Assembly: GCA_963761675.1 (NCBI GenBank)
Contig: CAVXIA010000015.1
Location: 62,054 to 86,053, forward strand
Direction: 5' to 3'
Length of the DNA stretch: 24,000 nt
Source: an uncultured Conexibacteraceae bacterium
Lineage (GTDB): Bacteria; Actinomycetota; Thermoleophilia; Solirubrobacterales; Solirubrobacteraceae
The notes beneath the pieces are model-generated. The model saw only the letters and a list, made by a program, of their open reading frames with translations. It was not told the origin of the DNA and did not search any database. Below, piece after piece: positions 1 through 18,782 of the stretch; position 1 is the stretch's first letter; every line of letters starts with the position of its first letter. The translations under genes and the position numbers were made by a program.

Positions 1-1337
1 CGCTGTTCCTCGCGGAGACCCCGGATCTCGCACTGACGGCGGTGGTCGCGTTGCGGGGCGAGCTCGTGCTTCTGCAGACGCTGGCCCAGGAGACCGGTTG
101 CGTCAGATGGCGAGCACTGGCAGATTGGTGGCGCGCAACGGCATGGCCGGAGCGTGAGCTGCTCGAACGCGATGATCGAGCCCAGATCGATCGGTGCTTG
201 GAGGGCCACAGCCTGACCAGGCCGGACGCGGATCTGATCGACCGATCGGTGTCCGGGCTCGACGTGTTCGCGATTCCCTATGGGCCCGTGAGATCCGGGA
301 TCTTTGAGGCGATCCAGTTTCAGATCGAGACCGGCGGCGAGGACATCACACACCTGCAGACCCGGCCGTTTTTCAAGCACCGCGGCATCGAAGCACGCTT
401 CACCGGTATGGACCCGGAGAACGCCGTGATCGTCGCCGAGCGTGTGGCGGGGATCGCCAGCAACGCCTACGCAAGCGCTTTCTCGGAGGCCGTGGAGCGG
501 GTGGCGGGCGTGAGCGCGCCCCGCCGTGCGCAGCGCTGGCGCGCGGTCTATTGCGAGCTCGAACGGATGGCCTGCCACCTGGACGTGATCGCCAAGGAGG
601 CGGAGACCACGGCGCTGTACGTCGGGCAGGCGCGGTTCCAGATTCTCAAGGAGAGCGTGCAACGGATACGGGCTCAATTGACGGGCAGCCGGTTCGGACG
701 AGGCATGATCGTTCCGGGTGGTGTTCGGGCCGAAGGTGAGCTGAGTCTCGAAGACCTGAGCACGGGGCTTGACGCGCTCGCACGCGATCTGCGACGTGAC
801 TGCCGCATGTTCCTGGGTACCCCGTCGATGACAGATCGCCTGATCGGCAGCGGTCGTCTTGACCGCGCGGTGACAGAGGAGCGGTGCGCTGTGGGTCCGC
901 TCGCACGCGGCTCGGGGATATCCACTGACGCGAGACACGAGCGCCCATACGGTGCGTACGCGCGCCTGGGGGTGCGGGTGATGACCGATCGTGGCGGTGA
1001 CGCGATGGCCAGAATGAGCGTCCGGTTCGCTGAACTATTCGAGTCGCTCCGCCTTGTGCGCCAGACGACGGAGCAGCTTCGCCGCCACGATGGTGAGCTC
1101 CTCGCCGCGATCCCTGAGCACCTCACCGGCACGGCGTGCGGCTGGGCCGAGGCGCCGCAGGGCGAGCTGGTGTTCTGGGTGGAGATGCGGAACGGCGCCG
1201 TGCACCGCGTGCACATCGCTTCACCATCGCTGCGGAACTGGGCGCTGTTCGATGGCGCGTTCCCGAATGATGTGCTGACCGACTTTGCGTTCATAGAGCA
1301 CAGCTTCGGTCTCACCCCCGCGGGAGCTGATCGCTGA
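1..1337 (+). CDS. HycE/NuoC-NuoD-like [NiFe]-hydrogenase large-subunit homolog lacking the Ni-Fe cysteine ligands (5' partial; the frame is open to the window edge)
   Basis: The frame of ORF 42..1337 stays open back to nt 3. A NuoC-like 'AWPERELLERD' segment is followed by NuoD/HycE motifs: 'GPVRSGIFEAIQFQIETGGEDI', 'FFKHRGIE', 'AVGPLARGSGISTDARHERPYGAY', 'AEAPQGELVFWV' and 'IASPSLRNW'. The L1 position reads 'AERVAGIASNAYA' and the C-terminus reads 'FIEHSFGLTPAGADR', so neither has the cysteines. Confidence 0.8.
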   Translation, partial: LFLAETPDLALTAVVALRGELVLLQTLAQETGCVRWRALADWWRATAWPERELLERDDRAQIDRCLEGHSLTRPDADLIDRSVSGLDVFAIPYGPVRSGIFEAIQFQIETGGEDITHLQTRPFFKHRGIEARFTGMDPENAVIVAERVAGIASNAYASAFSEAVERVAGVSAPRRAQRWRAVYCELERMACHLDVIAKEAETTALYVGQARFQILKESVQRIRAQLTGSRFGRGMIVPGGVRAEGELSLEDLSTGLDALARDLRRDCRMFLGTPSMTDRLIGSGRLDRAVTEERCAVGPLARGSGISTDARHERPYGAYARLGVRVMTDRGGDAMARMSVRFAELFESLRLVRQTTEQLRRHDGELLAAIPEHLTGTACGWAEAPQGELVFWVEMRNGAVHRVHIASPSLRNWALFDGAFPNDVLTDFAFIEHSFGLTPAGADR

Positions 1338-1960
1338 TGCTCGAGTGGATCTACCGCGGCCTCAGCAAAGGCCGGATCACAACCACCTACCCACACCGGG
1401 CAGAACACGGCCCCGCTGGCTTCGAGGGCACTGTCGAGATCCTGGCAGCGGGCGAGCGCGAGCGCGCCGCGACCGCGTGCTCTGAGGGGGCGATCGTCGT
1501 GATCGGGGATCCCGCCCGACTCTCGAGTGATGCCTCCGGCCTGCGCCGCTCGATTCATGTGCGCCACATCGACTGCGGTTCCGACGGGTCGGAGGAGTGG
1601 GAGATACATGCGTTGTGGAACCCGCATTACGACATCCAGCGACTGGGGTTCTTCCTCACCAACGCCCCTCGGCACGCCGACGTTCTGTTGGTGACGGGAC
1701 CCGTCACCACACCGTTGCGAGAACCGCTTCGGCGCACCTGGGAGGTCATGCCCGCGCCGAAGGCGCTGATCGCCGTCGGCGACGACGCCTGCGGCATCGG
1801 GTTGCATGCGGACAGAGCAGGCGGGCTGACGGCCGGAGGCGTCGACGGTGTCCTGACAGTCGACGTATATGTGCCCGGCACGCCGCCACCGCCGATCATG
1901 ATCATGCAGGGACTACTGCTTGCAGCCGGCGTTCACACCCCAAGGCAGGTGGCAGCATGA
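1337..1960 (+). CDS. HycG/NuoB-like small-subunit homolog with an N-terminal HycF-like stub; Fe-S ligands largely substituted
   Basis: 'SIHVRHIDCGSDGSEEWEIHALWNPHYDIQRLGF..APRHADVLLVTGPVT', 'KALIAVGDDACGIG', 'GGVDGVLTVDVYVPGTPPPP' are collinear with NuoB/HycG motifs. The N-terminal 'GLSKGRITTTYPHRAEHGPAGFEG' resembles the HycF/NuoI N-terminus. The start overlaps the upstream stop (TGATG at 1335-1339). Confidence 0.8.
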   Translation: MLEWIYRGLSKGRITTTYPHRAEHGPAGFEGTVEILAAGERERAATACSEGAIVVIGDPARLSSDASGLRRSIHVRHIDCGSDGSEEWEIHALWNPHYDIQRLGFFLTNAPRHADVLLVTGPVTTPLREPLRRTWEVMPAPKALIAVGDDACGIGLHADRAGGLTAGGVDGVLTVDVYVPGTPPPPIMIMQGLLLAAGVHTPRQVAA

Positions 1961-3936
1961 ACGTCCTTTTTGCCATCGGAATGAGCCTGCTCGCGCTGGC
2001 CATACCGGTGGCCTGGATATCGCCTTCGACCGCCGGCCCCAGGCTGGGTTCGATCTGCTCGGCGGCCGGCTGTCTGCTGCTTGTAGCTGTTGGGCTTGCG
2101 GCCGCGCTCGGGCGCAGCGAGCCGGTTGTGAATCTCGGATCATGGATCGGGTTCGGTCACAGCGCACTTCGAGCCGACGGACTCGCCGGCATCTTTCTCG
2201 CGCTCACGGGGATCACCGGCGCTGCCGTATCGCTTGCCTACGCTGAGCTACCGGCTGGGAAATGGCTGACGATGCTCTCGAGCGCTCTGATTCTGTTCGT
2301 GGTGGTCGCGATCGGATCAGACAACGGGTTTCTGTTCTTCCTTGCCTGGGAGGCGATCACCGTCTGCGTGTACCTGATTGCAAGCGCCGGCCGCACACAC
2401 GAGGATCTGGTCGGCGGTTACCTGACGGGCGGGCTGGCGAAGCTCGGCGGTGCCGCCCTGCTGGCCGCGTTCGGGTTGCTCTACGGGCATACGCACAGCT
2501 TCTCCCTCGAGGTCTGGCGGCACGCGCACCTCTCCGCGGGAACGCGCGACCTGCTGTTCGCGCTATTCCTCAGCTGCTTCGCGACGAAGGTCGGAGTCCT
2601 TCCGTTGCAGGGCGGACTCCCCGCCGGATACGGGTCGGCCCCGCGGCTCGGGGCCGCGTCATTGTCGGTCGCGTTGTGTGCGGGGTTCTACGGACTCTGG
2701 CGATTCACGTTCGACGTGCTTGGCCCCCTGCCGACGGGATGCGGAGATGCGCTGCTGATCATCGCCTCCCTCACCGCGGTCACGGGGGTCACATACGCGC
2801 TGACACAGAATGACATGCGCGGATTCCTCGGCTACTCGACGGTCGAGCACGCCGGCGTGGCATTGGTCGGATTCGCGGTCGCGCTGCTCGGGCATGCGGC
2901 GCACCAGCCGAAGCTCGCCGCCATCGGCCTTCTCGCGTGCACGCTCCAGGTCTGCGCGCACAACCTCTCAAAGACGCTGTCGCTGATCAGCATCGACCGT
3001 GTGATCTATGCGACTGGAAGGCGAACGATCGACCCTCTCGGCGGGATCTCGCGACTACTGCCGGTCACAGCGGCAACATCCGGGGTCGCCGCGCTCACGC
3101 TGGCCGCGATCCCGCCTCTGGGCGGGTTTGTCAGCGAATGGTTCACGTTCGAGGCGCTGTTGCAGGGCTTCCGCATGCCGACACTGCTGGCACGCTTGCT
3201 CTGCGCTCTGGCGGCGGCGATCCTGGCCTTGACCGCCGGGCTCGGGTTGCTCGCTTTTGCGAAGTACTACGGCTTCGTCTTCCTCGGTCGCGCGCGTGAA
3301 AACCTTGGTGAGGTGCGTGAGCCTTCGAGATGGCCGCTTGGGGCGGGGGCCCTGGCGGTGGTGGTCCTGTTCCTGGGTGCGGCTGCGCCGTGGGAGATAC
3401 ATGTGATCGGAGCTGGCCTGCGCCCTCTGCTCGGATTTGATCTTTCCGCGAGCACGATCAGTCACCCGCTCGTTCTCGGGCCGGTGTTCCAGAACTTCTC
3501 GGTCCTGGACCCAACCTGGCTATGTGTCGTGCTGCCGTGTTATGCGATCGTCGCCGCGACGATCGCCTTCGGCGCGGACAGGCGTCGCGGCGCGCGCCGC
3601 GCCCCGGTCTGGGTGACCGGCAGCGGCGCTGAGCTCGCGGCCGTGCAATACCGGCCGTCGGCGTACTCGAACCCCATGCGCGTGATCCTTCGGGGCCCGC
3701 TCGGTTTCCGACGCCGTCTGTCACCCGTCGCCGGCGACGGCGCCGTGGGGCACCTCGTGCTCGAAACCCGGGTCGTCTTGGTCATCGACCGTTACCTCTA
3801 TCGACCGGCCGCCACGGTTGCGTTGCGGATTGCCGAGCGCGTACGCGCCACCCAATCCGGACGGCTGTCCGTCTATCTGCTGTACATGCTGACGGCCCTG
3901 CTGATCGCCCTGTCCCTCGTCCCCATTCTGCACTGA
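1957..3936 (+). CDS. HycC/HyfB/NuoL-type antiporter-like membrane subunit (proton-conducting membrane transporter family)
   Basis: Polytopic hydrophobic protein of 659 aa from ATG 1957 (ATGA overlap with the upstream stop). 'GFLFFLAWEAITVCVYLI', 'LGGAALLAAFGLLYG' and 'GLWRF' are typical of NuoL/M/N-like subunits. The C-terminal 'VWVTGSGAELAAVQYRPSAYSNPMRVIL' resembles the HycC/HyfB tail. The track ORF start at 1597 is an R-rich off-gene leader. Confidence 0.85.
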   Translation: MNVLFAIGMSLLALAIPVAWISPSTAGPRLGSICSAAGCLLLVAVGLAAALGRSEPVVNLGSWIGFGHSALRADGLAGIFLALTGITGAAVSLAYAELPAGKWLTMLSSALILFVVVAIGSDNGFLFFLAWEAITVCVYLIASAGRTHEDLVGGYLTGGLAKLGGAALLAAFGLLYGHTHSFSLEVWRHAHLSAGTRDLLFALFLSCFATKVGVLPLQGGLPAGYGSAPRLGAASLSVALCAGFYGLWRFTFDVLGPLPTGCGDALLIIASLTAVTGVTYALTQNDMRGFLGYSTVEHAGVALVGFAVALLGHAAHQPKLAAIGLLACTLQVCAHNLSKTLSLISIDRVIYATGRRTIDPLGGISRLLPVTAATSGVAALTLAAIPPLGGFVSEWFTFEALLQGFRMPTLLARLLCALAAAILALTAGLGLLAFAKYYGFVFLGRARENLGEVREPSRWPLGAGALAVVVLFLGAAAPWEIHVIGAGLRPLLGFDLSASTISHPLVLGPVFQNFSVLDPTWLCVVLPCYAIVAATIAFGADRRRGARRAPVWVTGSGAELAAVQYRPSAYSNPMRVILRGPLGFRRRLSPVAGDGAVGHLVLETRVVLVIDRYLYRPAATVALRIAERVRATQSGRLSVYLLYMLTALLIALSLVPILH

Positions 3937-4376
3937 TGTTTCAACGAATCCTGCTCGCTTGGGACGGCTCCGACATCGCCCAGCGCGCCCTCGACGTGGC
4001 CATCGACGTCACCCGCCGTTACGACGCCGAGCTCGTTGCCGTCGCCATCGCATACTCGCCCGCACACGCCGAGACCAAGGCCGACCGCGAGGAGACGGCC
4101 GACGCTGCACACCGGTACCTCAGTCGTACCTTCGACGAGGTTGCCGACCGTGCGCAACGCGCCGGTGTCGATGTCTCCCTCGAGATCATCGACGGAGACA
4201 GCCCCGCCCGCGCGCTCCTCGATTACGCGCACCGGCACGCATTTGACCTGATCGTGTGCGGGCACCACCACAGCGGCCGCGCCGGTCGTCTGCTGCTCAA
4301 GGGTGTAGCCCCCGAGCTGATCGAGGATGGCTGCCCGACGCTGGTCGTGGGCGATGAGGACCCCCTGGCGCCTTGA
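3936..4376 (+). CDS. Universal stress protein (UspA family)
   Basis: 'ILLAWDGSDIAQRALDVAIDV....AELVAVAI', 'DLIVCGHHHSGRAGRLLLKGVAPELIEDGCPTLVV' gives the typical USP architecture. The ATG overlaps the upstream stop (TGATG at 3934-3938). Confidence 0.8.
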   Translation: MFQRILLAWDGSDIAQRALDVAIDVTRRYDAELVAVAIAYSPAHAETKADREETADAAHRYLSRTFDEVADRAQRAGVDVSLEIIDGDSPARALLDYAHRHAFDLIVCGHHHSGRAGRLLLKGVAPELIEDGCPTLVVGDEDPLAP

Positions 4377-5452
4377 ACGACGATTGCCTCAAACTCACGA
4401 CGTACTTCGGGGAGCGGGACCGAACCGACCGCGGTCTCCTGGCCGACGACCTCATGGCCGTCTACGGCGACCATCACGTGGCGGCCGGCATCCTTCTACG
4501 GGGTGCAGAAGGATTCGGCCGGCTCCACCACCTGCACACCGACCGGCTTCTGACGCTGTCCGAAGATCTCCCGGTTGTCTCGATCGCCGTCGACGAGCGC
4601 GCCCGCATCGAGCTGCTGCTGCAAGAGCTGCTTCAAATCAAGCGTCGCGGGCTCATAACCCTTGAACGGGCGCGGCTGTTGTCCGGAGAGATAAGGCAGG
4701 TGCAGCTGCCCGATGAGTTTGGGGAGGCCACGAAGCTGACGGTCTATCTCGGACGCCAGGATCGCGCAGGTGACGCTCCGGCCTACGTTGCGCTCTGTGA
4801 CCTCATGTACCGCCGCGGCCTGGCTGGGGCGAGTGTCTTTCTCGGCGTCGACGGCACGCGTGGCGGCCGTCGAGCGCGCGCGAGGTTGTTCGCTCGCAAC
4901 GCCGATGTACCGATGATGCTGATCGCCGTCGGGTCCGGAGAAGGGATCGCAGAGGTGCTTCCGGAGCTTGGCGGACTGCTCCACGCGCCCCTGATGACAC
5001 TGGAGCGGGTGCGGGTCTGCAAGCGCGACGGCGAGCTGCTCGCAAAGCCGCATGAGCTGCCGGCGACGGACGAGCATGGCCTGGGGATGTGGCAGAAGCT
5101 CATGATCTACACGTCGAACGTCGCGGCGCAACATGACCGCCCTTTGCATATGGAGATCATCCACCGGCTGCAGGCCGAAACCGAGGCAGCCGGCGCCACC
5201 GTGCTACGCGGGATGTGGGGCTACCACGGCGACCATGCGCCACACGGCGACCGCCTTTTGCAGGTCCGACGTCACGTGCCAGTCTGCACGATCGTCATCG
5301 ACCGTCCTGATCGGATCGCTCGGTCGTTTCAGATCATCGACGAGATCACCGCAACGCACGGCCTCGTGACAAGCGAGATGGTTCCGGCGGCACGGGCCAT
5401 GAGCGAAGCTCACATGCGCGGCGGTCTGCGGCTCGCCAGACATCGGTTCTGA
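4373..5452 (+). CDS. Protein with three tandem DUF190 (COG1993, PII-like) domains
   Basis: Three internal repeats of about 105-115 aa each begin with a 'KLT(T/V)Y' or 'KLMIY' strand. Each contains an 'A(G/A)xxLRG..G(F/Y)G' or 'GASVFLGVDG' segment and ends with a 'L(I/M)TLER' or 'LVTSEM' strand, the DUF190 pattern. The TTG start overlaps the USP stop (TTGA at 4373-4376). Confidence 0.75.
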   Translation: MNDDCLKLTTYFGERDRTDRGLLADDLMAVYGDHHVAAGILLRGAEGFGRLHHLHTDRLLTLSEDLPVVSIAVDERARIELLLQELLQIKRRGLITLERARLLSGEIRQVQLPDEFGEATKLTVYLGRQDRAGDAPAYVALCDLMYRRGLAGASVFLGVDGTRGGRRARARLFARNADVPMMLIAVGSGEGIAEVLPELGGLLHAPLMTLERVRVCKRDGELLAKPHELPATDEHGLGMWQKLMIYTSNVAAQHDRPLHMEIIHRLQAETEAAGATVLRGMWGYHGDHAPHGDRLLQVRRHVPVCTIVIDRPDRIARSFQIIDEITATHGLVTSEMVPAARAMSEAHMRGGLRLARHRF

Positions 5453-5483: not shown

Positions 5484-5891
5484 ATGGCGATGACCTTGCG
5501 GACCAGCGGAATCAGGCAGCCGAGCATCTGGGCGAGCGTCGTCAGCCACGACGCGCCCGGGTTGCGCGGCTGGCTGCTTGCACTCGGATTCACACAGGAT
5601 CTGATGATCCCAGGGGAGAGCGAGGGTTCGATCCACCACTGCCAACTCGATTGGCCCGAGGGTGGTCGTGTGCTGCTCTCGAGCACCGACGAGCGTCCAA
5701 CCCCCTGCCGGCCCGGTACCAGCTCGCTGCACGTCGTCACCGCAGACCCTGACGCCGTGATGGCTCGCGCAGTCTCGCTGGGAGCGGTTGTGATTCACCC
5801 ACTCACCGATCAGACCGACTACCCGTCACGCGACTGCACGATCGCGGACCCTGACGGGAATCATTGGACATTCGCGACCTTCGCCGGATGA
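5484..5891 (+). CDS. VOC (glyoxalase/bleomycin-resistance/dioxygenase) family protein
   Basis: Size of 135 aa, with 'LRGWLLALGFTQD' near the N-terminus and a C-terminal 'DYPSRDCTIADPDGNHWTFA', the pattern typical of small VOC-fold proteins. Confidence 0.65.
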   Translation: MAMTLRTSGIRQPSIWASVVSHDAPGLRGWLLALGFTQDLMIPGESEGSIHHCQLDWPEGGRVLLSSTDERPTPCRPGTSSLHVVTADPDAVMARAVSLGAVVIHPLTDQTDYPSRDCTIADPDGNHWTFATFAG

Positions 5892-7048
5892 GGCCGAGCC
5901 CTGCTGCCAGCTCGCGCTCGTCTGTCGGCATGGTCGGCGCCGGACAGCTTGCCCGGATGGCCTGGCAGGCCGCGATCTCGCTGGATCTCGAGCTGGTCTG
6001 CCTCGGTGCGCAGGGCGATGCCGCCGCGCGGGCCGGGGTTTCGCTGCTTGAGGGGTCGGGTCGGGACGGATCGGCCCTGGGCGTGCTTGCGAAGCATTGC
6101 GATGTGCTGACGTTCGAGCATGAACTCGTGGACCTCGCGGCTGTGGCTGGGCTGGAGGCTGGAGGAACGCCGGTGCGCCCCTCCAGCGCGGCGCTGGAGC
6201 TGGCCGTGGACAAGCTCCGGCAGCGGAGGACATTGTCGGACTTGGATGGGGTTGCTGTTCCGGCACACGCTTCCGCCGGCGCCGTCACCGACGTCCACGC
6301 CTTCGCCGCGGCGCATGGATGGCCAGTGGTTCTGAAGGCGCGCAGTGGTGGGTACGACGGTCGAGGCGTCTGGATGTGCATCGACCGGAGGGATGCCGAA
6401 GCGGCCTTCGCCGAGGCGACCACGGCCGGCCTCGAACTCTACGTCGAGGAGGCGGTTGAACTCGCTCAGGAGCTTGCCGTCATCGTCGCACGCTCACCCT
6501 CGGGTGATCTAGCCGTTTACGCACCGGTCGAGACCCAACAGGTCGATGGCATGTGCCGCTCGGTGCTGATGCCGGCCGGAATCCCGGAGACGATGGCCCT
6601 GGAGGTCGAGAACCTGGCGCGGACGCTCGCCGAGCACATCCGGCTGGAGGGGCTCATGGCCGTTGAGCTGTTCGTGACGCGCGATCGTCGTCTGCTGGTG
6701 AACGAACTGGCTCTGCGGACCCACAACACGGGACACCTTCACACCGAGGCCTCCGTCACCTCGCAGTTCGAGCAGCACCTGCGCGCGGTCCTCGACCTGC
6801 CCCTCGGGCTCACGACCCCGGTCGCGGCGGCGGCCGCGATGGTCAACGTGGTGGGACCGCGTGACGGTTCGGACCCGGCATCGCGCTTGGCGGACGCGCT
6901 GAGCGTACCGGGGGCCCGTGTGCATCTTTACGGCAAGAGCGCACGGCCCGGACGCAAGCTCGGGCATGTCACGGTCTGCGCCGACACGCCTGAGGAGGCG
7001 CTTGCTCGGGCGCGGGAGGCAGCCGATAGGCTGGAGCGGGATGTCTGA
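5888..7048 (+). CDS. purK: N5-carboxyaminoimidazole ribonucleotide synthase
   Basis: '[12 protein letters not shown]', 'VLTFEHE', '[19 protein letters not shown]', '[11 protein letters not shown]', 'GRKLGHVTV' form the ATP-grasp PurK signature, and the gene sits next to purE. ATG 5888 forms an ATGA overlap with the VOC stop. ATG 5930 is an alternative start. Confidence 0.9.
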
Positions 7049-7556
7049 ACCGATCGTCGGCGTGGTCATGGGGTCTGACAGCGACCTGAGCGTCATGAGC
7101 CAGGCCACCGCAGTGCTCGATGACCTCGGTGTGCCCGTGGAAACGCGGGTGGTGTCGGCCCACCGCACCCCGGTCGAGATGATCGCCTACGGACAGCAGG
7201 CTGAGGCGCGGGGTCTGGCCGTGATCATCGCCGGCGCCGGTGGCGCGGCTCACCTTCCCGGGATGCTGGCCGCGGTCACCTGCCTGCCGGTGATCGGTGT
7301 ACCTGTGTCGCTCAAGAATCTCGATGGGCTGGACAGTCTGTTGTCGATCGTGCAGATGCCCAAGGGCGTTCCGGTCGCGACCGTCGCCATTGACGGTGCT
7401 CGTAACGCCGGACTGCTGGCCGCCAGGATCCTCGCGGTGCGGGACCTCGATCTGCGCGAGCGGCTGCGTGGTTTCGCCGACGCACAGGCCCAGGCCGCAC
7501 TTGAGGCCGACGCGCGGGTCCGGCAAGGGGAGACCTTCCCGCGGAAAGGTTCTTGA
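7041..7556 (+). CDS. purE: N5-CAIR mutase (class I PurE)
   Basis: '[14 protein letters not shown]', 'VVSAHRTP', '[15 protein letters not shown]', 'PVIGVPV', '[16 protein letters not shown]'. The ATG at 7041 overlaps the purK end by 8 nt. Confidence 0.92.
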
Positions 7557-7982: not shown

Positions 7983-8990
7983 TCATCGGGCGGAGTCCCT
8001 GACGACCAGCTCAGCGGGAAGCGATGTGCTGGTGATGGCACCCGTCTGCACGCGCTGAACCACGCCATCGGCGAGCAGTCGGCCGGCGAGCATCGCGTCC
8101 TGGCGAATCGTTGTCAGCGACGGCTTGACGTGGGCCGCGAGTGGCACATCGTCGTAGCCGACCACCGCGATGTCTCCCGGGACGCTGCGGCCGCTGTCGG
8201 CGATCACCTCCATCGCGGCGATCGCCATGACGTCGCTGTTCACGAACACCCCGTCGATCTCGGGTGCGCTGTCGAGCAACTCCGCCATTGCGACGCGGGC
8301 CGAGCCCTCCGACCACGCGGTGTGGGTGATCAAACCGGGATCCGGTGTGCGTCCGGCTGCCGCAAGGGCGGCCTCGTAGCCGCGCTGCCTCTCGGCGACC
8401 TCAGCCGCGTGCTTGGGGCCGCCGAGAAACGCGACCTTCTGGCGCCCGATGCCCAGCAGGTGCTCGGTCGCAAGGCGGCCTCCGCGGACGCTGTCGCCGC
8501 TGACTGAACAGAAGGAGCCATCGGAAGATGGCTGTCCCCAGACGATGAAGGGTGCGTCGGCGTCCCGCAGGGCGCGCATCTGCTGACGCGTGCACTGTGC
8601 CTCGAGCATGATGAAGCCGTCGGCGCGCCCGGTTTCCAGGTAGCGGCGCGGCCAGGAGACGTCGCTGGGCCCGACGTGAATCATCAGCAGGTCGTAATCG
8701 CTCCTGCCGAGTCCGGCGGAGATCCCGGTCATAAGTTCGAGCATGAAGGCGTCTGGCACGACGCTGCCGGCCTTGTAGCCGTAGGCGACCAGCGCGATCG
8801 CCCCACTCTGCTGGAGGCTCAAGCGGCGGGCCCGAGCGTCGACCTCGAAGCCGTGCTCCTTGGCGATGGCGCGCACCAACTCCTTTGTCTCAACGCTGAT
8901 CACGGGGCTGTCGTTGAGCGCCCGCGACACGGTGGATTTGGAGACCCCGGCCAGGCGGGCGATGTCGGCTATAGAGTTCACGCTCGCCAT
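7983..8990 (-). CDS. LacI family transcriptional regulator
   Basis: N-terminal HTH 'SIADIARLAGVSKSTVSRALNDSPVISVETKELVRAIAKEHGFEVDARARRL' followed by a periplasmic-binding-protein-like sugar-binding core ('IALVAYG', 'DGFIM', 'VAFLGGP', 'DIAVVGYDD'). Start is either ATG 8990 or ATG 9005. The track start at 9032 is less likely. Confidence 0.9.
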   Translation of the reverse strand: MASVNSIADIARLAGVSKSTVSRALNDSPVISVETKELVRAIAKEHGFEVDARARRLSLQQSGAIALVAYGYKAGSVVPDAFMLELMTGISAGLGRSDYDLLMIHVGPSDVSWPRRYLETGRADGFIMLEAQCTRQQMRALRDADAPFIVWGQPSSDGSFCSVSGDSVRGGRLATEHLLGIGRQKVAFLGGPKHAAEVAERQRGYEAALAAAGRTPDPGLITHTAWSEGSARVAMAELLDSAPEIDGVFVNSDVMAIAAMEVIADSGRSVPGDIAVVGYDDVPLAAHVKPSLTTIRQDAMLAGRLLADGVVQRVQTGAITSTSLPAELVVRDSAR

Positions 8991-9004
8991 TGCAACCGGT
9001 TGCA
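8991..9004. promoter_or_regulatory. LacI-family operator-like perfect palindrome TGCAACCGGTTGCA (copy 2; probable autoregulatory site)
   Basis: Identical 14-mer directly abutting ATG 8990 and overlapping ATG 9005 of the LacI-family gene. Confidence 0.6.
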
Positions 9005-9261
9005 TGGTACCGCCAATCGCGGCGGACGGCAACCGGCCACGGTGCGCCGCGGCAAATCAGCGCCCGACGGCAACCTGCGAGGGCTGCCTCGTGGGAAATC
9101 CCTTCCGGGCCTGGCGCGGATACCTCTCCAGGTCTCTGCTGGTGGAGTCTGCGGACGGGTGTCTCGCGCCGGCGGGCTGGGGCGGTCGATGGCCCCCGGT
9201 AGTGCGGCACGGCCTTCCCGGCCTCTCCGGGCGCGAGCGGGGCTTGGTGTGAGGGCGCTAT

Positions 9262-9301
9262 GCGGGGTGGGGCGGCCGCGCGAGGCGGCGCCCCACCCCG
9301 C
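9262..9301 (-). terminator. GC-rich hairpin downstream of the PLDc_N/SHOCT gene (terminator-like, no U-tract)
   Basis: GCGGGGTGGGGCG (9262-9274) is the perfect reverse complement of CGCCCCACCCCGC (9289-9301), with a 14-nt loop. The hairpin begins 7 nt past the stop codon at 9308-9310. Confidence 0.5.
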
Positions 9302-9307
9302 CCCAGA

Positions 9308-9718
9308 TCAGCTGCTGCTGCCGCTCAGGGCCTTTGCCTTGAGCGTGTCGAACTCCTCCTGCGTGATCGTGCCGCTGTCAAGCAGCTGCTTGGCGTTGGC
9401 GATCTCGCTCGCCGAGCCGCTGCTGCCGGCTGTCTGGCGAACGTAGTCGTCGAACTGCGCCTGAGCTTTCTGAGCGTCCTTGTTCTGACGATCGGCCATG
9501 CCGTTGTGGTAGGCGATCAGGTAGATCAGGACTCCCAGGAACGGGAGGATGATGATGAATATGACCCAGAAGGCCTTGCCCCACCCGGATATGTCCTTGC
9601 GGCGGATGAGGTCCATGAAGACCGTAATCGCGATCCAGATCCAGACGATGAACGCGAAGAAGATCAGCATTGACCACAGCACACCGAGGAACGGATACGA
9701 CGTTGCGGTGATAAGCAT
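9308..9718 (-). CDS. Small membrane protein with a PLDc_N-type N-terminal domain and a C-terminal SHOCT domain
   Basis: Two TM helices with 'FWVIFIIILPFLGVLIYLIAY' (PLDc_N pattern). The C-terminal 'AKQLLDSGTITQEEFDTLKAKAL' is the SHOCT pattern. I chose ATG 9718 as the start; the track start at 9784 adds a non-hydrophobic leader. Confidence 0.75.
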   Translation of the reverse strand: MLITATSYPFLGVLWSMLIFFAFIVWIWIAITVFMDLIRRKDISGWGKAFWVIFIIILPFLGVLIYLIAYHNGMADRQNKDAQKAQAQFDDYVRQTAGSSGSASEIANAKQLLDSGTITQEEFDTLKAKALSGSSS

Positions 9719-9944
9719 TTGGTTGGACTTACTCCCAGAATGGTTGTGGGAATTAACGGGATAGGACCTCCATCCCAGAGCCAACAGGGGCGAGGTCCCG
9801 ACTTTGTGATGCAGGACACTACCGCTTGGCGACGTCGAGTGTCTTCGGTGTGGTCCCGCAACGTCCAGGGCAGGGCCTCCGTGTGTCCCAGGGGCGCGGC
9901 CCCGAAGCGCGGAACCATCTGCGGCATGCCGGGGGTTATATGGG

Positions 9945-10154
9945 GTGATGAACGATTTTGATGAGTTCGTTGCCGGCAGCGTCGAGCCGCTGCTGAGGAC
10001 GGCCTACCTGATCACGTGGGACGGCGGCGATGCGGGCGCCGACCGCGCCGCCCTGCCCGAGCGGAGCCCGCTGCAGCTTCGGCTATGGCTCGAGCGGCGG
10101 GCCGGGCGCCGCCGCCGCCGGTACATCGTCTACGAGCGTCACAGGCTCGTCTGA
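9945..10154 (+). pseudogene. Probable remnant of an ECF (SigE-family) sigma factor gene
   Basis: The first ~28 codons, 'MNDFDEFVAGSVEPLLRTAYLITWDGGDA', match the characteristic N-terminus of actinobacterial ECF sigma factors (FxxFVxxxxxxLLRTAYLLTGD). The remainder is R-rich, non-sigma-like, stops at 69 aa and overlaps the RDD gene tail. Confidence 0.3.
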
Positions 10155-10712
10155 CTGAGCGCCTGAAGTCCCCGGGGTGGCCAGCGGGCCACCCCGGGGG
10201 GGCTGACCATGCTCGGAGTCGACAGCCTGCTGGCGGAGTTGCTCCCGGACGGCCTTCTCGGTCTCCTCGTCGATGTCCCAGCGCACCACGGTATCGGCCA
10301 TACGATCCTGGAATCCGCGCCGCCGCGGGTCGGTCAATATCGGTATCAGGCCGGCGCCGAGCGGGATGATCGCCAGGGTCAGGCCAATGAATCGGCGCAC
10401 GGCCTGCGTGAAGGTGACATCACCTCCGCCGACGCCGCTGAGCACGCGAATCCCGAGGATGCGATTGCCGACCGTCTGGCCGGTCAGTGCCCAGAAGGTC
10501 ACGAAATAGAACAGGCTCCATACCCACCAGGCTGCCGCGCCGAGCACAGCCCCGACGATGTCGATGTTCCCGCTCACGCCCAGCAGCGATGCGATCAGGT
10601 TGACCGCGCCGCCGAGCAGCACCGCAATCGCGTTGACGACGAGGGCGTCGATCAGAAACGCAACCCCGCGGGTCACGAGACCGACGTAGCCGACCGGCGC
10701 GGTACGAGTCAC
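10083..10712 (-). CDS. RDD family membrane protein
   Basis: 'GLVTRGVAFLIDALVV', 'TGQTVGNRILGIRV', 'RRRGFQDRMADTVVV' form the RDD-domain pattern with three TM segments, followed by a low-complexity C-terminal tail. The GTG start overlaps the upstream stop (GTGA). Confidence 0.8.
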   Translation of the reverse strand: MTRTAPVGYVGLVTRGVAFLIDALVVNAIAVLLGGAVNLIASLLGVSGNIDIVGAVLGAAAWWVWSLFYFVTFWALTGQTVGNRILGIRVLSGVGGGDVTFTQAVRRFIGLTLAIIPLGAGLIPILTDPRRRGFQDRMADTVVRWDIDEETEKAVREQLRQQAVDSEHGQPPRGGPLATPGTSGAQSDEPVTLVDDVPAAAAPGPPLEP

Positions 10713-11380
10713 TCGCCGGCCTGGGGCTCTCGTCGCCCGAGCAGGCGGCGGGCGATGCGCTCGGCAACATCATCCGCGACGACCGTCCGTGTTCGGACCC
10801 CGACGGCGACATCGTCCGCCAGGCCGACCGTCTGGCGGCGGAGCACCGCACGCAGCTCGGGCGAGCTCGTGACGTACTCGAGCACCTGTTGCATCTCCTC
10901 GCTCGCAAGCAGACGCGCGGTGATCTCTTCGAGCATGCGGCTGTCCATGACGCGATCGATCAAGCGATCGAGTCCGGGATCGTCGAGGGCGTTGCCGATC
11001 AGCGCCTCTGTGGCCGGGTGGTTGATCACGACGCTCACGATCCGGTCGAAGGCGCCGGAGCGCAGCAGCCGGTCGAGCAGCTCATCGCCGAGCCCTGAGC
11101 GGGCGAACTCGTCGGCCAGTGCCCGCGACAGCTGCGCCGCGAGCCGACGCGCCTGCGCAGCGGCGTCGGCGGTCACGAGCACGCCGTCCTGGCCCCATCT
11201 GTAGGAGACGGCGTCGGCGCGAGCACGCACCGGTGCCCACGGAGACGAGTTCCAGATCGCGGCCGCCGGCCATGCCGCAGCCGCCAGTGCCCGTGCGCCG
11301 ACGGCGACCGGGCGGCGCGAGCGTCGGGCCACGTTGGCCGTCGCGCCGACCACGACATACGGGATGGGAGCGCGTTTCAA
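10709..11380 (-). CDS. Hypothetical protein (helical, Leu/Arg/Asp-rich), translationally coupled to the RDD gene
   Basis: Long ORF with consistently G/C-rich third positions. I recognise no family. The exact start is uncertain (TTG 11380 or a downstream GTG). Confidence 0.55.
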   Translation of the reverse strand: MKRAPIPYVVVGATANVARRSRRPVAVGARALAAAAWPAAAIWNSSPWAPVRARADAVSYRWGQDGVLVTADAAAQARRLAAQLSRALADEFARSGLGDELLDRLLRSGAFDRIVSVVINHPATEALIGNALDDPGLDRLIDRVMDSRMLEEITARLLASEEMQQVLEYVTSSPELRAVLRRQTVGLADDVAVGVRTRTVVADDVAERIARRLLGRREPQAGE

Positions 11381-11477
11381 GGCGATGACGATCGGGTGGT
11401 TGTCGATGCCCCAAAGGGTACGCCCGCAGCGAAGAGCTTGGGCGGCCGACGCTCCTCGGTACGAATCTCGGCCATGC

Positions 11478-12272
11478 TCAGCTGGTCAGATGGACCGCGG
11501 CCTCCGGTGTGGCCACGTGGAAACTGAAGCTCTCCTGGAGGTAGAGGTTGACCTGCTCGGCATCGTGTGAGTCGTAGCCCAATGAGATGTCCTGGCCGCT
11601 GTCGAAGAGGAAGTCACCGCCGCGGCGGCTGAGCAGCACAGCGCCCTCGATGCCGGGAACCCACACGATCGGGCCTCCGAGCAGCAGTGACACGTGTTCT
11701 CTGAGCGGGTAACCGCCCGGCACGGGAGCGGTGCCCAGCAACCGGTAGTGATCCTGGCCGGCACCGAGTGCGTACGGTCCGTCGACTCCCGATCCGAGCA
11801 GCAATTCGATCGCCGCCGTCACACGTTCTGCGTAGTTCTCCGCTTTGATGCGCTTCAGCATCGCGTGCGGGGTGGCCGCGATCACCCCGTTGAACGTTCC
11901 GGCCCAGCCGCCGAAGACGGCGTCACCTTCGGCCCGTGCGATCTCGCGAGCGGCGGTGTCGAGCGGACCCAGATCGGCATCGTCGGCGCCGCGATCGACG
12001 TCCTGGAGCTCGCTTCGCGAAAGGCTGAAATCGGCGCGGAGCTCGATCAGCGGCAGGACGCGTCGTCGCAGCGCAGTCACCCCTTCGGGGCTGCCTTCGA
12101 TCGCCTCGACCCGCCCAAGGTTCGTCGATGAGTGTGACCAACCGCGAGGGCCGTCGAAGTCGACCAGCTTGCGCGCACCCAGAGCCGGGGTCAGGCGCTC
12201 GCGGGCCTCGTGGTCGAGCAGCTCCCAGCCGGCATCGCTGATCGGCGCGTGCGAACGAAGCAGATGATTCAC
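11478..12272 (-). CDS. Family 1 encapsulin nanocompartment shell protein (linocin M18-like)
   Basis: At 264 aa it is collinear with mycobacterial Cfp29-type encapsulin: 'LLRSHAPISDAGWELLDHEA', 'LIELRADFSLSRSELQDVDRGADDADL', 'GVDGPYAL', 'GYPLREHV', 'SRRGGDF', 'LGYDSHD...VNLYLQESFSF'. A GTG start sits in a GTGA overlap with the DyP stop. The SD GAGAGGAG lies 7 nt upstream. Confidence 0.92.
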   Translation of the reverse strand: MNHLLRSHAPISDAGWELLDHEARERLTPALGARKLVDFDGPRGWSHSSTNLGRVEAIEGSPEGVTALRRRVLPLIELRADFSLSRSELQDVDRGADDADLGPLDTAAREIARAEGDAVFGGWAGTFNGVIAATPHAMLKRIKAENYAERVTAAIELLLGSGVDGPYALGAGQDHYRLLGTAPVPGGYPLREHVSLLLGGPIVWVPGIEGAVLLSRRGGDFLFDSGQDISLGYDSHDAEQVNLYLQESFSFHVATPEAAVHLTS

Positions 12273-13282
12273 GCTGATGCTCCTCTCAGACCGCCGATCC
12301 CCAGCGATCCGTCGTGGTTTGTCGTCTCAGGTTCGATGACGGCGGCGCTCGGCTCGAGCGGGGGATCTGCCATGCCCGCGAGCTGATCCGTGGTGGGCAC
12401 GAAGAACAGTGTTCCCGTCACGGCGGTGGAGTAGTCGAGCACGCGGTCGTGATTGCCGGGCGGGTTGCCGATGAACATGTTGCGCAGCATCTGTTCGATC
12501 ACGCCCGGGTCAGACGCGTAGCCGATGAAATACGTGCCGAACTCGCCTGCCCCAACGCGGCCGAAGGGCATGTTGAAACGCACGATCTCGAGCTCCTCTC
12601 CGGTCTCATCGACGATCGTGTTGAGTGCGACGTGCGAGTTCGATGGCTTGACGTCGTCAGGCAGCTCGATATCGCTGAGCTTCGTGCGTCCGATCACGCG
12701 CTCCTGTTCCTCGACCGAAAGGGAGTCCCAGGCCGCCAGGTCGTGCAGGTACTTCTGGACGATCACGTAACTGCCCCCGGCGAACCCCGGATCCTCGGCG
12801 CCGATCGTGACCGCGGTCCTCGCCGCTTCGCCCTCCGGGTTCTCGGTGCCGTCGACGAAGCCGAGCAGGTCGCGCTCGTCGAACGAGCGGAATCCATGGA
12901 CCTCGTCGACGATTCGGACCAGCCCGCCCAGCCGTTCGGCGATCCGCTGCGCGAGCTCGAAGCAGAGATCAAGCCGGCGCGCACGGATGTGGAAAAGGAG
13001 ATCGCCCGGGGTGGAGGCCGCCGTGTGGGCTGCGCCGGAGAGCGGGACGAAGCGATGCAGCCCCAGCGGCTTCGGGCACAGAGGGCCCAGGCGATCCCAG
13101 AGGTCTGAGCCGATCCCCACCACGCAGCTGAGGCACGCCTCGGGGATGCGGAAGCCGACGGAGCGCTTGAGACCGGGAATGTCGGCGAGCGCGTCACGGA
13201 GCTGATCCTCGTCACCGGCCGGGGCGATCATCACGAGAAAGATCGCCGCCTCCGTCGATGGTTGAAGGATCGTCTGCTGCAT
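12269..13282 (-). CDS. DyP-type (dye-decolorizing) peroxidase carrying a C-terminal encapsulin targeting peptide
   Basis: 'AAIFLV', 'GFVDGTENP', 'GGSYVIVQKYLHDL', 'SHVAL', 'IVRFNMPFG', 'GTYFIGY' are DyP motifs. A flexible P/A/E linker is followed by 'DGSLGIGGLRG'. Start is ATG 13282 (MQQTILQP...) or GTG 13315. Confidence 0.9.
   Translation of the reverse strand: MQQTILQPSTEAAIFLVMIAPAGDEDQLRDALADIPGLKRSVGFRIPEACLSCVVGIGSDLWDRLGPLCPKPLGLHRFVPLSGAAHTAASTPGDLLFHIRARRLDLCFELAQRIAERLGGLVRIVDEVHGFRSFDERDLLGFVDGTENPEGEAARTAVTIGAEDPGFAGGSYVIVQKYLHDLAAWDSLSVEEQERVIGRTKLSDIELPDDVKPSNSHVALNTIVDETGEELEIVRFNMPFGRVGAGEFGTYFIGYASDPGVIEQMLRNMFIGNPPGNHDRVLDYSTAVTGTLFFVPTTDQLAGMADPPLEPSAAVIEPETTNHDGSLGIGGLRGASA
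12272..12313 (-). other. Encapsulin cargo-loading (targeting) peptide at the DyP C-terminus
   Basis: The last 14 codons encode DGSLGIGGLRGASA, matching the SLxIGSLKG-type targeting peptide consensus of DyP cargo proteins. Confidence 0.8.
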
Positions 13283-13438
13283 CACGCTCGCGCCCGTCTC
13301 GTCGCTCACTCGCACTCACTGTAAGACTTCGCGGCGATCGACGGCAACGCTGGGGGAGGATTCTGGCTGACATCGAATCAGTACAGCCGGGGCCGCGCCC
13401 AGTCCTGAGCGCCCGTCGGCGCCTGCTTACATGGAGAC

Positions 13439-15558: not shown

Positions 15559-16476
15559 TTGGTCGCCCGAGTCCAGCTGCCACGGCTACCTGTCCCGTCC
15601 GAACAGCTCTCCAAACTGAACGGATGCCATGCCCGGGCGTCGGTGATCACACTGCAGTCAAAGCGGCTTCCTGAGCCACGACGAGTTGCGCCGCCGTCGC
15701 TGCGGGTCGGCCTGATCGGACTCGTGGGGGGTCTGCTCGCGGCTCTGGTTGGAGGCGCCGACGGGTTCTGGCTCTGCCTCCCGGCCGGGCTGTTGGCCGC
15801 GGCCGTCGCTCATACCAGCCGCGGTGGGCTGTGGAGCGCCGTGCCGGTGTGGCTGATCGGCGCCGCGGCGGCCGCAGCAGTTCAGCGCGGCGTGATGCCG
15901 CCGCTGTGGCTGGCGGTGCTCGTGCCGTGCGCCTGCCTGTCCGTGACCCTGGGCACCGGGGGACGCCTGCGACGCGAGCGCGACGCGCTGCGGGACGCCG
16001 CTCTCAGCGACCCGCTCACGGGGCTGGCCAACCGCCGCATGCTCATGTCGATGGCCGAGTACGAGATCGCTCGGCACCACCGAGCCGATGGCCGGTTCAC
16101 CGTCGTGATGTTGGACCTCGACGGGTTCAAGCCGCTCAACGACCGCCACGGCCACGCCGCCGGCGATCAGATGCTGCGGGATGTCGGTGCCGCGCTGACC
16201 CGCGCGCTGCGCGCTCAGGACACCATCGCTCGATTCGGCGGAGACGAGTTCTGCGTCATCGCGCCCGAGACCGAGCACCCGCGGGTGTTGGCGGCGCGGA
16301 TCGCCGGCGCGGTGTCAGAGGCCGCCGGTGGCCTCGATTCGCTCAGCGCCAGCGTCGGCCTGGCGGTATTCCCGGAGGACGGGACGTCGATCGAGCTGCT
16401 GCTGCGTGCGGCCGATGAGCGGCTGCTGGCGGCCAAGCGGCGACTTCACGGCGACGCCGAGCGGCGAGCCGCGTAG
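15559..16476 (+). CDS. Membrane-anchored diguanylate cyclase (GGDEF domain) with an intact I-site
   Basis: 'DPLTGLANRR', 'VVMLDLDGFKPLNDRHGHAAGDQML', 'RAQDTIARFGGDEFCV'. The N-terminal region holds 3-4 TM helices. The start is uncertain (TTG 15559 or GTG 15643). Confidence 0.85.
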   Translation: MVARVQLPRLPVPSEQLSKLNGCHARASVITLQSKRLPEPRRVAPPSLRVGLIGLVGGLLAALVGGADGFWLCLPAGLLAAAVAHTSRGGLWSAVPVWLIGAAAAAAVQRGVMPPLWLAVLVPCACLSVTLGTGGRLRRERDALRDAALSDPLTGLANRRMLMSMAEYEIARHHRADGRFTVVMLDLDGFKPLNDRHGHAAGDQMLRDVGAALTRALRAQDTIARFGGDEFCVIAPETEHPRVLAARIAGAVSEAAGGLDSLSASVGLAVFPEDGTSIELLLRAADERLLAAKRRLHGDAERRAA

Positions 16477-17669: not shown

Positions 17670-17792
17670 GGCCGGGAAGCTACTGGCTTGTGCATGAGAA
17701 GGTCCGTCGAACGATTCGCGTGAACGTGGATAGACTTGGTTGACCCAATCGGTTTTGTGGGGTCAGCCCGGCCCGCACCAGGCCCGTCTCAG

Positions 17793-18782
17793 ATGCAGAT
17801 CGATCCCTACATCGTCCTTGGAAGCGCAGTCGTCGGGCTGCTCGTCGGCATGACCGGCGCGGGCGGTGGCGCGCTGATGACGCCGATGCTGATCCTGCTG
17901 TTCGGCGTGACGCCGACGGCCGCCATCTCCAGCGACCTGGTCGCCTCCGTGGTGATGAGGCCGGTCGGAGCGGGCGTTCATCTGCGTGCCGGGACGGTCA
18001 ACAAGCGGCTCGTGCTGCTGATGTCCTGCGGCTCGGTCCCGGCGGCGATCCTCGGCTCCTACCTGCTCAGCCTGATGGGCGACTCCACCACCGATGTCAA
18101 GCGCATCGAGTTGATCCTCGGCACCGCGCTGCTGATAGGCGCCGCGGCCATGGTCCTGCGTTTCTTCCTCGACCGCCGCTCGGGCACAGATCGCGACGCC
18201 CATGTCAGCGAGATCACCCCTCGCCCCGCTCTGACGATCCTGGTCGGCGTGATCGGAGGCGTGATAGTCGGGATGACCTCGGTCGGGTCCGGCTCCTTGA
18301 TGATCGTGATGATGCTTTTCCTGTACCCGATGATCAGCGCCAAACAGCTCGTCGGAACCGACCTCACTCAGGCGGTGCCGCTCACGCTTGCGGCGGCGGT
18401 CGGCGCGCTGATCTTCGGCAACGTGCAGTTCGGACTGACGGCCTCACTGATCATCGGCTCGGTGCCGGCGGTCTTCATCGGCTCGATGCTGTCCTCGAGC
18501 ATCCCGGATCGTTATATCCGCCCCGTGATCGCATTTGTGATCCTCGCGTCGGGCCTCAAGTACGTCGGTCTCGCCACGACTGCGCTTGGTTGGACGCTCG
18601 TTGCCGTGCTGCTTGCGGGCGCCGGCTTCGTCGCGTACGAGCTCGGCCGTTCACGCACGGCCGAGGCCCGCTTGGCCTCGGCCGGCGCCGCACCCACTCT
18701 CGACGTCGGCTCCGCACCGGCTCCCGAGGCTGTGCCCGCCGCGGCGGAGGCAGGGCCCGCGGACGCGTCGCTCGCCGGCTGA
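17793..18782 (+). CDS. TauE/SafE (DUF81) family anion exporter
   Basis: 'GLLVGMTGAGGGALMTPMLILLFG' and a second internal copy 'GVIVGMTSVGSGSLMIVMMLF' form the duplicated 4-TM TauE pattern. The C-terminal tail is Ala/Pro-rich. I chose ATG 17793 over the track start at 17736. Confidence 0.85.
   Translation: MQIDPYIVLGSAVVGLLVGMTGAGGGALMTPMLILLFGVTPTAAISSDLVASVVMRPVGAGVHLRAGTVNKRLVLLMSCGSVPAAILGSYLLSLMGDSTTDVKRIELILGTALLIGAAAMVLRFFLDRRSGTDRDAHVSEITPRPALTILVGVIGGVIVGMTSVGSGSLMIVMMLFLYPMISAKQLVGTDLTQAVPLTLAAAVGALIFGNVQFGLTASLIIGSVPAVFIGSMLSSSIPDRYIRPVIAFVILASGLKYVGLATTALGWTLVAVLLAGAGFVAYELGRSRTAEARLASAGAAPTLDVGSAPAPEAVPAAAEAGPADASLAG

Follow-up and report, generated by a model that had tools for sequence, protein, structure and literature searches.

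A hydrogenase-like large subunit that has lost every ligand of its Ni-Fe centre raises the question of what the complex around it still does, and this question is posed by the first gene of the window analysed here, a stretch of 24,000 nucleotides (67% GC) from an uncultured Conexibacteraceae bacterium (GenBank assembly GCA_963761675.1, contig CAVXIA010000015.1, positions 62,054 to 86,053 of the forward strand). We can conclude with considerable confidence that the product of this gene is EhrL, the large subunit of an Ehr complex, rather than a hydrogenase subunit or a NuoD, and the loss of cofactor sites furthermore extends to the small subunit, EhrS, encoded directly after it. As an overall explanation we lean towards an Ehr complex that acts as a redox-independent ion translocator. 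EhrL is read in frame 3 of window positions 1..1337 (gene at 3..1337, + strand), which from the window edge onwards has no stop codon before the one at 1335-1337. The gene begins upstream of the window, and a database protein that is identical over the entire overlap (P0001) gives a full length of 500 residues, of which the window covers the last 444 (residues 57-500); the ORF (open reading frame) called from a GTG at 42..1337 is an artefact of truncation at the window edge and does not have the true EhrL start.

The initial annotation, made from the letters alone, held that this protein is a homologue of group-4 hydrogenase large subunits and NuoD without the four Ni-Fe ligands, and on this HMMER searches against the PDB, a MAFFT alignment to HycE and an AlphaFold model concur. 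Among all PDB chains the best phmmer match is HycE of the E. coli formate hydrogenlyase (FHL; 7z0s_E, E = 2e-39), with P. furiosus MbhL second (6cfw_L, E = 7e-29) and MbsL at E = 2e-19 (6u8y_L). The motifs that had been quoted, namely GPVRSGIFE, FFKHRGIE, GPLARGSGISTDARHERPYGAY, APQGEL, SPSLRNW, AERVAGIASNAYA, AWPERELLERD and, directly before the stop codon, HSFGLTPAGADR, are all found in frame 3. At L1, the site of the group-4 motif RxCGxCxxxH with its two metal-binding cysteines, phmmer sets 'ervagiasnay' over 'drvcgicgfah' of HycE and 'ermcgicsfsh' of MbhL, and MAFFT alignment to HycE translated from E. coli K-12 returns the same columns, C241 and C244 of HycE both standing opposite Ala in ERVAGIASNAY and the L1 His being replaced by Tyr as well. 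At L2, the site of the second cysteine pair (DPCxxCxxH/R), SFGLTPAGADR of EhrL lies over SLDPCYSCTDR of HycE, with Thr for C531 and Gly for C534, so that all four substitutions are those originally read. Nor do the ligands lie elsewhere in the protein, since the alignments fix the positions of L1 and L2 and no alternative set of cysteines is found among the 120 closest homologues, which have from one to eight cysteines in total and share a single conserved Cys column (C247, in ERMACH). The replacement motifs are nearly invariant in 120 cluster representatives, L1 as ERVAG[IV]A.. and L2 as IEHSFGLTPAGADR followed by the stop codon in 105 of them, and the Cys-less state is therefore no matter of chance or of sequencing error. 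EhrL is on these grounds predicted to be unable to ligate a Ni-Fe centre.

The fold of the large subunit is nonetheless present. An AlphaFold2 model of EhrL built from 116 homologues has a predicted local distance difference test score (pLDDT) of 95.3, and its top Foldseek match is again HycE (7z0s_E), with TM-scores of 0.90/0.85 over 533 aligned columns. The HycE-style fused NuoC-like domain, which had also been pointed out, is retained, being covered both by the HycE alignment, with W..ERE invariant, and by the structural superposition, and it is too divergent for Pfam PF00329. The EhrL gene terminates at the ...DR position that corresponds to the processing point of HycE, and the missing C-terminal extension is unremarkable, as the closest Cys-containing relatives likewise end in ...CDR.

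Loss of the four cysteines is not peculiar to Ehr, since NuoD and NuoCD of complex I are likewise Cys-less descendants of hydrogenase large subunits with the same fold, and a bona fide NuoD must be considered because Pfam reports Complex1_49kDa, together with an N-terminal piece of NiFeSe_Hases, and the best NCBIfam names are NuoD-like. The NCBIfam scores are however all far under the curated cut-offs, that for NuoD being 163 bits against a cut-off of 360. Furthermore, the likeness to the NuoD state that had been suggested holds for the Cys loss only: the quinone-headgroup Tyr of NuoD sits next to the first former Cys position, where MAFFT places a Gly in EhrL, and the loop reading GPVRSGIFE is not the His loop. 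Complex I also has a nuo operon and a NuoB with cluster N2, none of which is found in the Ehr of the window's clade, and in the tree described below no sequence is more distant than E. coli NuoCD. The other way to a conventional enzyme, a working [NiFe] hydrogenase with its ligands elsewhere, is opposed by the single conserved Cys in the whole protein. With no nuo genes found within 8-10 kb in the relatives, no quinone-site residues and no Ni-Fe Cys set, NuoD and active hydrogenase were both rejected, and we regard the two together as exceedingly improbable.

A search of 1.84 billion cluster representatives returned 373 relatives of EhrL at E <= 1e-30. All four cysteines occur in only 16 of the 114 nearest full-length representatives, a set that excludes the E. 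coli references and the two sequences of the window's own clade, and the remainder show many different Cys-less combinations. In a neighbour-joining tree of 119 sequences, built from these data with no curated Ehr or HydDB references and with moderate support for the placement, the window's clade lies deep within a Cys-less radiation, with the Cys-containing relatives grouped near the base of that radiation and E. coli HycE and HyfG outside it. This is the expected place for Ehr, the name given to relatives of group-4 hydrogenases that lack the CxxC motifs and whose function is unknown (PMC4378227, PMC10284858, PMC6349859, PMC7304191); they have been reported as nearest to group 4f (PMC10284858), and HydDB was trained to leave them out (PMC5037454). 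The published Ehr architecture comprises a NuoC-NuoD fusion, a NuoI-NuoB fusion, HyfB, HyfF, NuoH and HyfE (PMC6349859 supplement). The window protein and its relatives show a Cys-less group-4-like large subunit, this same gene set and a tree position beside group 4, near 4f and outside Nuo. Our identification of Ehr follows from the replaced L1 and L2 motifs, the HycE-like fold, the nesting in the Cys-less radiation and the agreement of the operon with the published architecture, and the complex is descended from group-4 (4f/Hyf-like) [NiFe] hydrogenases. Ehr complexes were reportedly described by Marreiros et al. 2013 (BBA 1827:198), as cited in the four papers named above. A Cys-less large subunit alone is thus the already known defining trait of Ehr, which are routinely removed from hydrogenase surveys, and the large-subunit finding mainly cautions against labels such as 'formate hydrogenlyase subunit 5' and 'NADH-quinone oxidoreductase subunit D'. 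Relatives carry both of these names in public databases as well as 'Ni,Fe-hydrogenase III large/small subunit'; for Cys-less proteins such names are misleading, with the risk that surveys of soil metagenomes count too many hydrogenases.

The operon was followed through 154 related loci (designated by L numbers), 80 from GTDB species genomes, almost all metagenome-assembled genomes (MAGs) of Solirubrobacterales/Thermoleophilia, and 74 from metagenomes, by searching the six-frame ORFs of the surrounding 8-10 kb with phmmer and E. coli reference proteins. The gene order in these relatives is a HyfC/HyfE fusion (543 aa), a HyfF-like subunit (492 aa), the large subunit, the ferredoxin-small-subunit fusion, a HyfB-like subunit, a universal stress protein (Usp) and, in some, a protein with three DUF190 domains. 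The genes upstream of the window are taken from relatives at 55-72% identity, the nearest loci with context being 70-72% identical, and a metagenome scan placed the closest relatives of the window at about 75% identity. No homologues of HycB, HycF, HycI, HycH, HypA/B or NuoA/E/F/G/J/K were found with the E. coli queries within 8-10 kb in the 154 loci, and the view that the gene does not sit in a nuo operon is upheld, its neighbours being of Hyf type. The proposed hydrogenlyase-type context, on the other hand, stands only as regards the Hyf-type membrane and peripheral core, as homologues of formate dehydrogenase, HycB, Hyp proteins and the endopeptidase were not found in this neighbourhood. 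The clade is abundant: tblastn confirmed 353 stretches among the GTDB genomes, and many peat and soil metagenome contigs come in addition.

Among known systems the other Ehr complexes share the Cys-less large subunit, the NuoC-NuoD and NuoI-NuoB fusions and the HyfB-, HyfF-, NuoH- and HyfE-like membrane subunits, whereas in the window's clade the NuoH-like and HyfE-like subunits are fused and the Usp gene is part of the operon. Group 4f-like [NiFe] hydrogenases (P0160, locus L091) have the same subunits in the same order (HyfB, HyfC, HyfE, HyfF, large subunit, fused ferredoxin-small subunit) and a large subunit that, like EhrL, ends without a C-terminal extension (...CDR) and is 30-37% identical, but they keep the four Ni-Fe cysteines, the four proximal-cluster cysteines and both ferredoxin clusters. 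The best sequence and structure match among solved structures is E. coli FHL, with HycE/HycG/HycF (PDB 7Z0S), to which Hyf with its same subunit kinds may be added; HycE and HyfG however belong to enzymes that bind Ni-Fe and have a C-terminal extension cleaved, and both complexes work with HycB, formate dehydrogenase and Hyp/HycI maturation, homologues of which were not found within 8-10 kb in the related loci. The M. tuberculosis Rv0082-Rv0087 ('hyc') locus, on which stress and hypoxia regulators act, has the same six subunit kinds in cyclically permuted order (PMC6901956), a likeness that is drawn from its description and is best taken as a lead.

The small subunit departs further from its relatives. 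EhrS (207 aa; 1337..1960, + strand, its start overlapping the EhrL stop) is a fusion of a HyfH/NuoI-type ferredoxin remnant with a HycG/NuoB-type small subunit, and it aligns with HycG and MbhJ, in which the proximal cluster is held by CxxC, GxCxxxGG and GCPP. In the window these read D..E (IDCGSDGSEEWEI), DDAC (the 'GxxAC' form, one Cys kept) and GTPP, and only one of the four cysteines of a proximal [4Fe-4S] cluster is thus kept. The state with D..E and GSPP/GTPP is found in 82 of 82 small-subunit ORFs, drawn from the 80 GTDB loci and L001-L004, and in all of the 120 closest database homologues. Further afield, D..E/GSPP recurs in two Ehr groups, L087 and L088, with large subunits at 40-43% identity to that of the window. 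The EhrS of the clade is consequently expected, from its motifs, to be incapable of ligating a proximal (N2-equivalent) [4Fe-4S] cluster. This is not so in Ehr generally: four other types with Cys-less large subunits (L093-L096) keep the proximal-cluster cysteines, L093 being cut by a contig end that leaves only its CxxC pair visible, and the closest true hydrogenase type (L091) keeps them along with both ferredoxin clusters. Loss of the proximal cluster therefore marks a sub-branch of Ehr. Ehr small subunits without a proximal Fe-S (iron-sulfur) cluster are not described in the literature accessible to us, which does not extend to the founding Ehr paper (Marreiros et al. 2013). An AlphaFold model of EhrS was of low confidence (pLDDT 51) and was set aside.

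What remains of iron-sulfur binding in the clade lies in the N-terminal part of EhrS, a NuoI/HyfH-type ferredoxin domain in which most members retain no more than 'CP' from the first motif and CxxCxxC from the second. In ferredoxins with two [4Fe-4S] clusters these four cysteines bind one cluster, and the surviving cluster is one that we take to be the equivalent of N6b in complex I. The EhrS of the window lacks even this, as a 52-residue piece that carries CxxCxxC in the relatives is missing and no complete Fe-S motif remains. Of 83 loci, 10 have such a deletion, with differing boundaries; they are dispersed across the large-subunit tree, and some closely related pairs differ in having the ferredoxin piece, for example L012 and L016 (synonymous divergence, dS, of 0.25) and L036 and L043; short EhrS of the window type forms seven further clusters at 90% identity. 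The short-form loci include L013, L016, L023, L025, L036, L037 and L075. The scatter of these deletions and their occurrence within close pairs speak for repeated loss, and the cluster is therefore dispensable without the operon having been abandoned. Because the Ni-Fe ligands, the proximal-cluster ligands and the last ferredoxin motif are all absent, the peripheral arm of the window's complex is predicted to be devoid of a canonical metal site and of an electron path. Loss of the proximal [4Fe-4S] ligands sets the whole clade apart from the four Ehr types above, which keep them.

A complex without a Ni-Fe site need not be without redox function, as in Mbx/Mbs-type complexes, which would reduce sulfane sulfur or another acceptor with ferredoxin, and MbsL is indeed a detectable homologue of EhrL that likewise has no Ni-Fe site. 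HycE and MbhL are however closer than MbsL. Mbs furthermore relies on a chain of three Fe-S clusters in its NuoB- and NuoI-like subunits, and the motifs of such a chain are absent from the EhrS of the window. Mbs and Mbx are encoded in 13-gene operons with MrpE/F/G-like subunits, as against five core genes of Hyf type here. The absent chain motifs, the five-gene core and the weaker MbsL match led us to reject this assignment, which we consider highly improbable.

First the Ni-Fe ligands disappeared, then the proximal cluster and finally the two ferredoxin clusters in turn, which could also be taken to mean that a former hydrogenase is simply disappearing as a decaying pseudo-operon, and one related locus (L085) does look frameshifted. 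Selection however tells otherwise. For pairs with unsaturated dS, pairwise Nei-Gojobori ratios of nonsynonymous to synonymous substitution (dN/dS) are 0.10-0.25 for both the EhrL and the EhrS genes, and this includes pairs that differ in the ferredoxin deletion. The operon is under purifying selection and is not decaying. Full-length ORFs are moreover intact in hundreds of genomes and metagenomes, synteny is conserved, the replacement motifs are nearly invariant, and starts overlap stops along the operon. A pseudogene is contradicted by dN/dS, intact ORFs, conserved motifs and synteny alike, was accordingly rejected, and has in our opinion next to no probability.

The five genes of the operon that lie in the window share the + strand, and the start of each downstream gene overlaps the stop of the one before it. 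EhrS is followed by the HyfB/NuoL-like antiporter-type membrane subunit (659 aa; 1957..3936, + strand), whose gene call is that of the identical 4.7-kb contig L001 at an offset of 305, then by the Usp gene (3936..4376, + strand), whose start overlaps the HyfB-like stop, and by the gene for the protein with three DUF190 (UPF0166) domains (4373..5452, + strand), whose start overlaps the Usp stop. The position of the Usp gene is conserved in most related loci, and it is coupled translationally to the HyfB-like gene in nearly all of them; the gene with three DUF190 domains follows Usp in about one third. Loci in which this was noted include L007, L009, L013 and L018. The sole solved relatives of the latter protein are uncharacterised structural-genomics proteins (1o51 and 2dcl).

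The membrane module, in which a NuoH-like and a HyfE-like subunit accompany two antiporter-like ones, is conserved. The TM5 Glu, TM7 Lys, TM11 Lys and TM12 Glu (TM, transmembrane helix) are functionally important in NuoL/M/N, and all of them are retained in both antiporter-like subunits. The loop E..E.G...E.SG of the NuoH-like subunit is likewise kept, and so is the 'EN' motif of HyfE. The TM8 Lys is missing in both antiporter-like subunits; for the HyfF type this absence is ancestral, as E. coli HyfF and the 4f-type relative both have an Asn there.

How, then, might such a complex work? On the explanation towards which we lean it would transfer no electrons, whether as a hydrogenase or otherwise. 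Its membrane module would translocate ions independently of redox chemistry, either powered by an ion gradient or dissipating one, much as in Mrp-type cation/proton exchange, and the hydrogenase-derived arm may have been kept as a structural element that caps or gates the NuoH-like channel. The single surviving cluster of most relatives would possibly be a sensor, and candidates for a regulatory role are Usp and the PII-like DUF190 protein, both co-transcribed with the complex. This redox-independent transport mechanism, which builds on retained and lost motifs, is put forward tentatively, as one that may well prove wrong. Mrp antiporters move ions without redox chemistry by way of NuoL/M/N-like and NuoK-like subunits (PMC9568556). 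They are a functional analogy only: the parts in common are the antiporter-like (PF00361) and HyfE-like subunits, the MrpA-G set is not found here, and Mrp antiporters have neither a NuoH-like subunit nor a hydrogenase-derived peripheral arm.

Several observations sit poorly with a complex that has given up redox chemistry. The complete four-Cys [4Fe-4S] motif (CP + CxxCxxC) is kept in 112 of the 120 closest EhrS homologues, and the cluster therefore matters in most relatives, where it could take electrons from an unlinked partner. Three cysteines of EhrS are furthermore conserved even in the short form (C48 in 120, C80 in 116 and C152 in 119 of 120), and together with the new Asp and Glu they could make a metal site of a non-canonical kind. 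That the motifs at the former active site of EhrL are so strongly conserved likewise suggests a specific ligand or a catalytic role rather than a passive cap. In the membrane, the TM8 Lys of the HyfB-type subunit has become Cys, which unlike that of the HyfF type is a new loss, and 'HxWLP' has become 'QGGLP', changes that could mean altered or impaired proton transfer. It should also be mentioned that the search for partner genes spanned only 8-10 kb with E. coli queries, and that the upstream genes are those of relatives. Cys48 of EhrS is the former 'CP' cysteine.

Several of these points would be accommodated by a redox-active Ehr, in which an oxidoreduction would still be coupled to ion translocation, with the help of an unlinked partner, such as a formate dehydrogenase or a ferredoxin-dependent module, and of a non-canonical cofactor or substrate site formed by the Asp, Glu and Cys of EhrS and the ERVAGIA/HSFGLTPAGADR pocket of EhrL. 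In the literature Ehr are expected to link redox reactions in the cytoplasm with charge translocation, and complexes of formate dehydrogenase with Ehr have been proposed (PMC6349859); the four-Cys cluster motif of most clade members, the three conserved cysteines and the nearly invariant pocket motifs fit this expectation. The ligands of the proximal cluster are however lost throughout the clade, and an N6b-like cluster would, going by the geometry of complex I and FHL, be too far from the EhrL pocket for electrons to pass efficiently. Moreover, deletions have removed the last cluster motif several times over, in the window among others, with selection on the operon persisting, and no partner genes were found within 8-10 kb in the 154 loci. 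A redox-active Ehr appears rather unlikely to us.

Returning to redox-independent translocation, the window itself would possibly represent a naturally cofactor-free member of the complex I/membrane-bound hydrogenase superfamily, with full peripheral and membrane arms, under selection and with no Ni-Fe, N2-type or ferredoxin clusters, a claim that we advance with still more reserve than the mechanism. If it is true, the hydrogenase-derived arm does a job that involves no electrons, for example that of a gate or regulator of the ions passing through the NuoH-like and antiporter-like subunits, the Usp and PII-like DUF190 proteins possibly control their passage, and the single cluster of the relatives is a sensor and not a wire. 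What could matter more widely is that an abundant clade of soil Actinomycetota has conserved a complex-I-like machine but stripped it of its chain for electron transfer, a loss that the lineage of the window has completed. An Ehr version without an electron path would narrow the hypotheses on Ehr function to non-redox ones, and the window-type complex would offer a simple test system for the contribution of the peripheral arm to ion translocation in the superfamily.

Some minor observations concern the related loci. Two MAGs have two separate Ehr-type loci each, L012 and L084 in DATJTT01 and L072 and L081 in DATGKS01, which are maybe paralogues unless they reflect a binning artefact. In L085 (CAWIRN010000007.1, ~8000-12500) the large, small and HyfF-like genes are fragmented across frames, which points either to pseudogenisation of this copy or to frameshift errors in its assembly; a similar fragmentation is seen in L087, on a long-read-like contig.

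The rest of the window is occupied by genes of other kinds. Two ORFs at 5864-7556 (+ strand) resemble purK and purE, judged by eye from motifs of an ATP-grasp carboxylase and of an AIR carboxylase/mutase. A small PLDc_N+SHOCT membrane protein (9308-9784, - strand), an RDD-family protein (10083-10712, - strand), a membrane-anchored GGDEF diguanylate cyclase (15559-16476, + strand), a TauE/SafE exporter (17736-18782, + strand) and a LuxR/MalT-TPR regulator (22212-23966, - strand) are ordinary neighbours with no evident tie to the Ehr operon. Finally, an encapsulin shell protein (Linocin_M18, E = 6e-70; 11478-12272, - strand) is encoded directly downstream of a DyP-type peroxidase (12269-13315, - strand), the stop of one gene overlapping the start of the other, and the two form a classical encapsulin-cargo pair.

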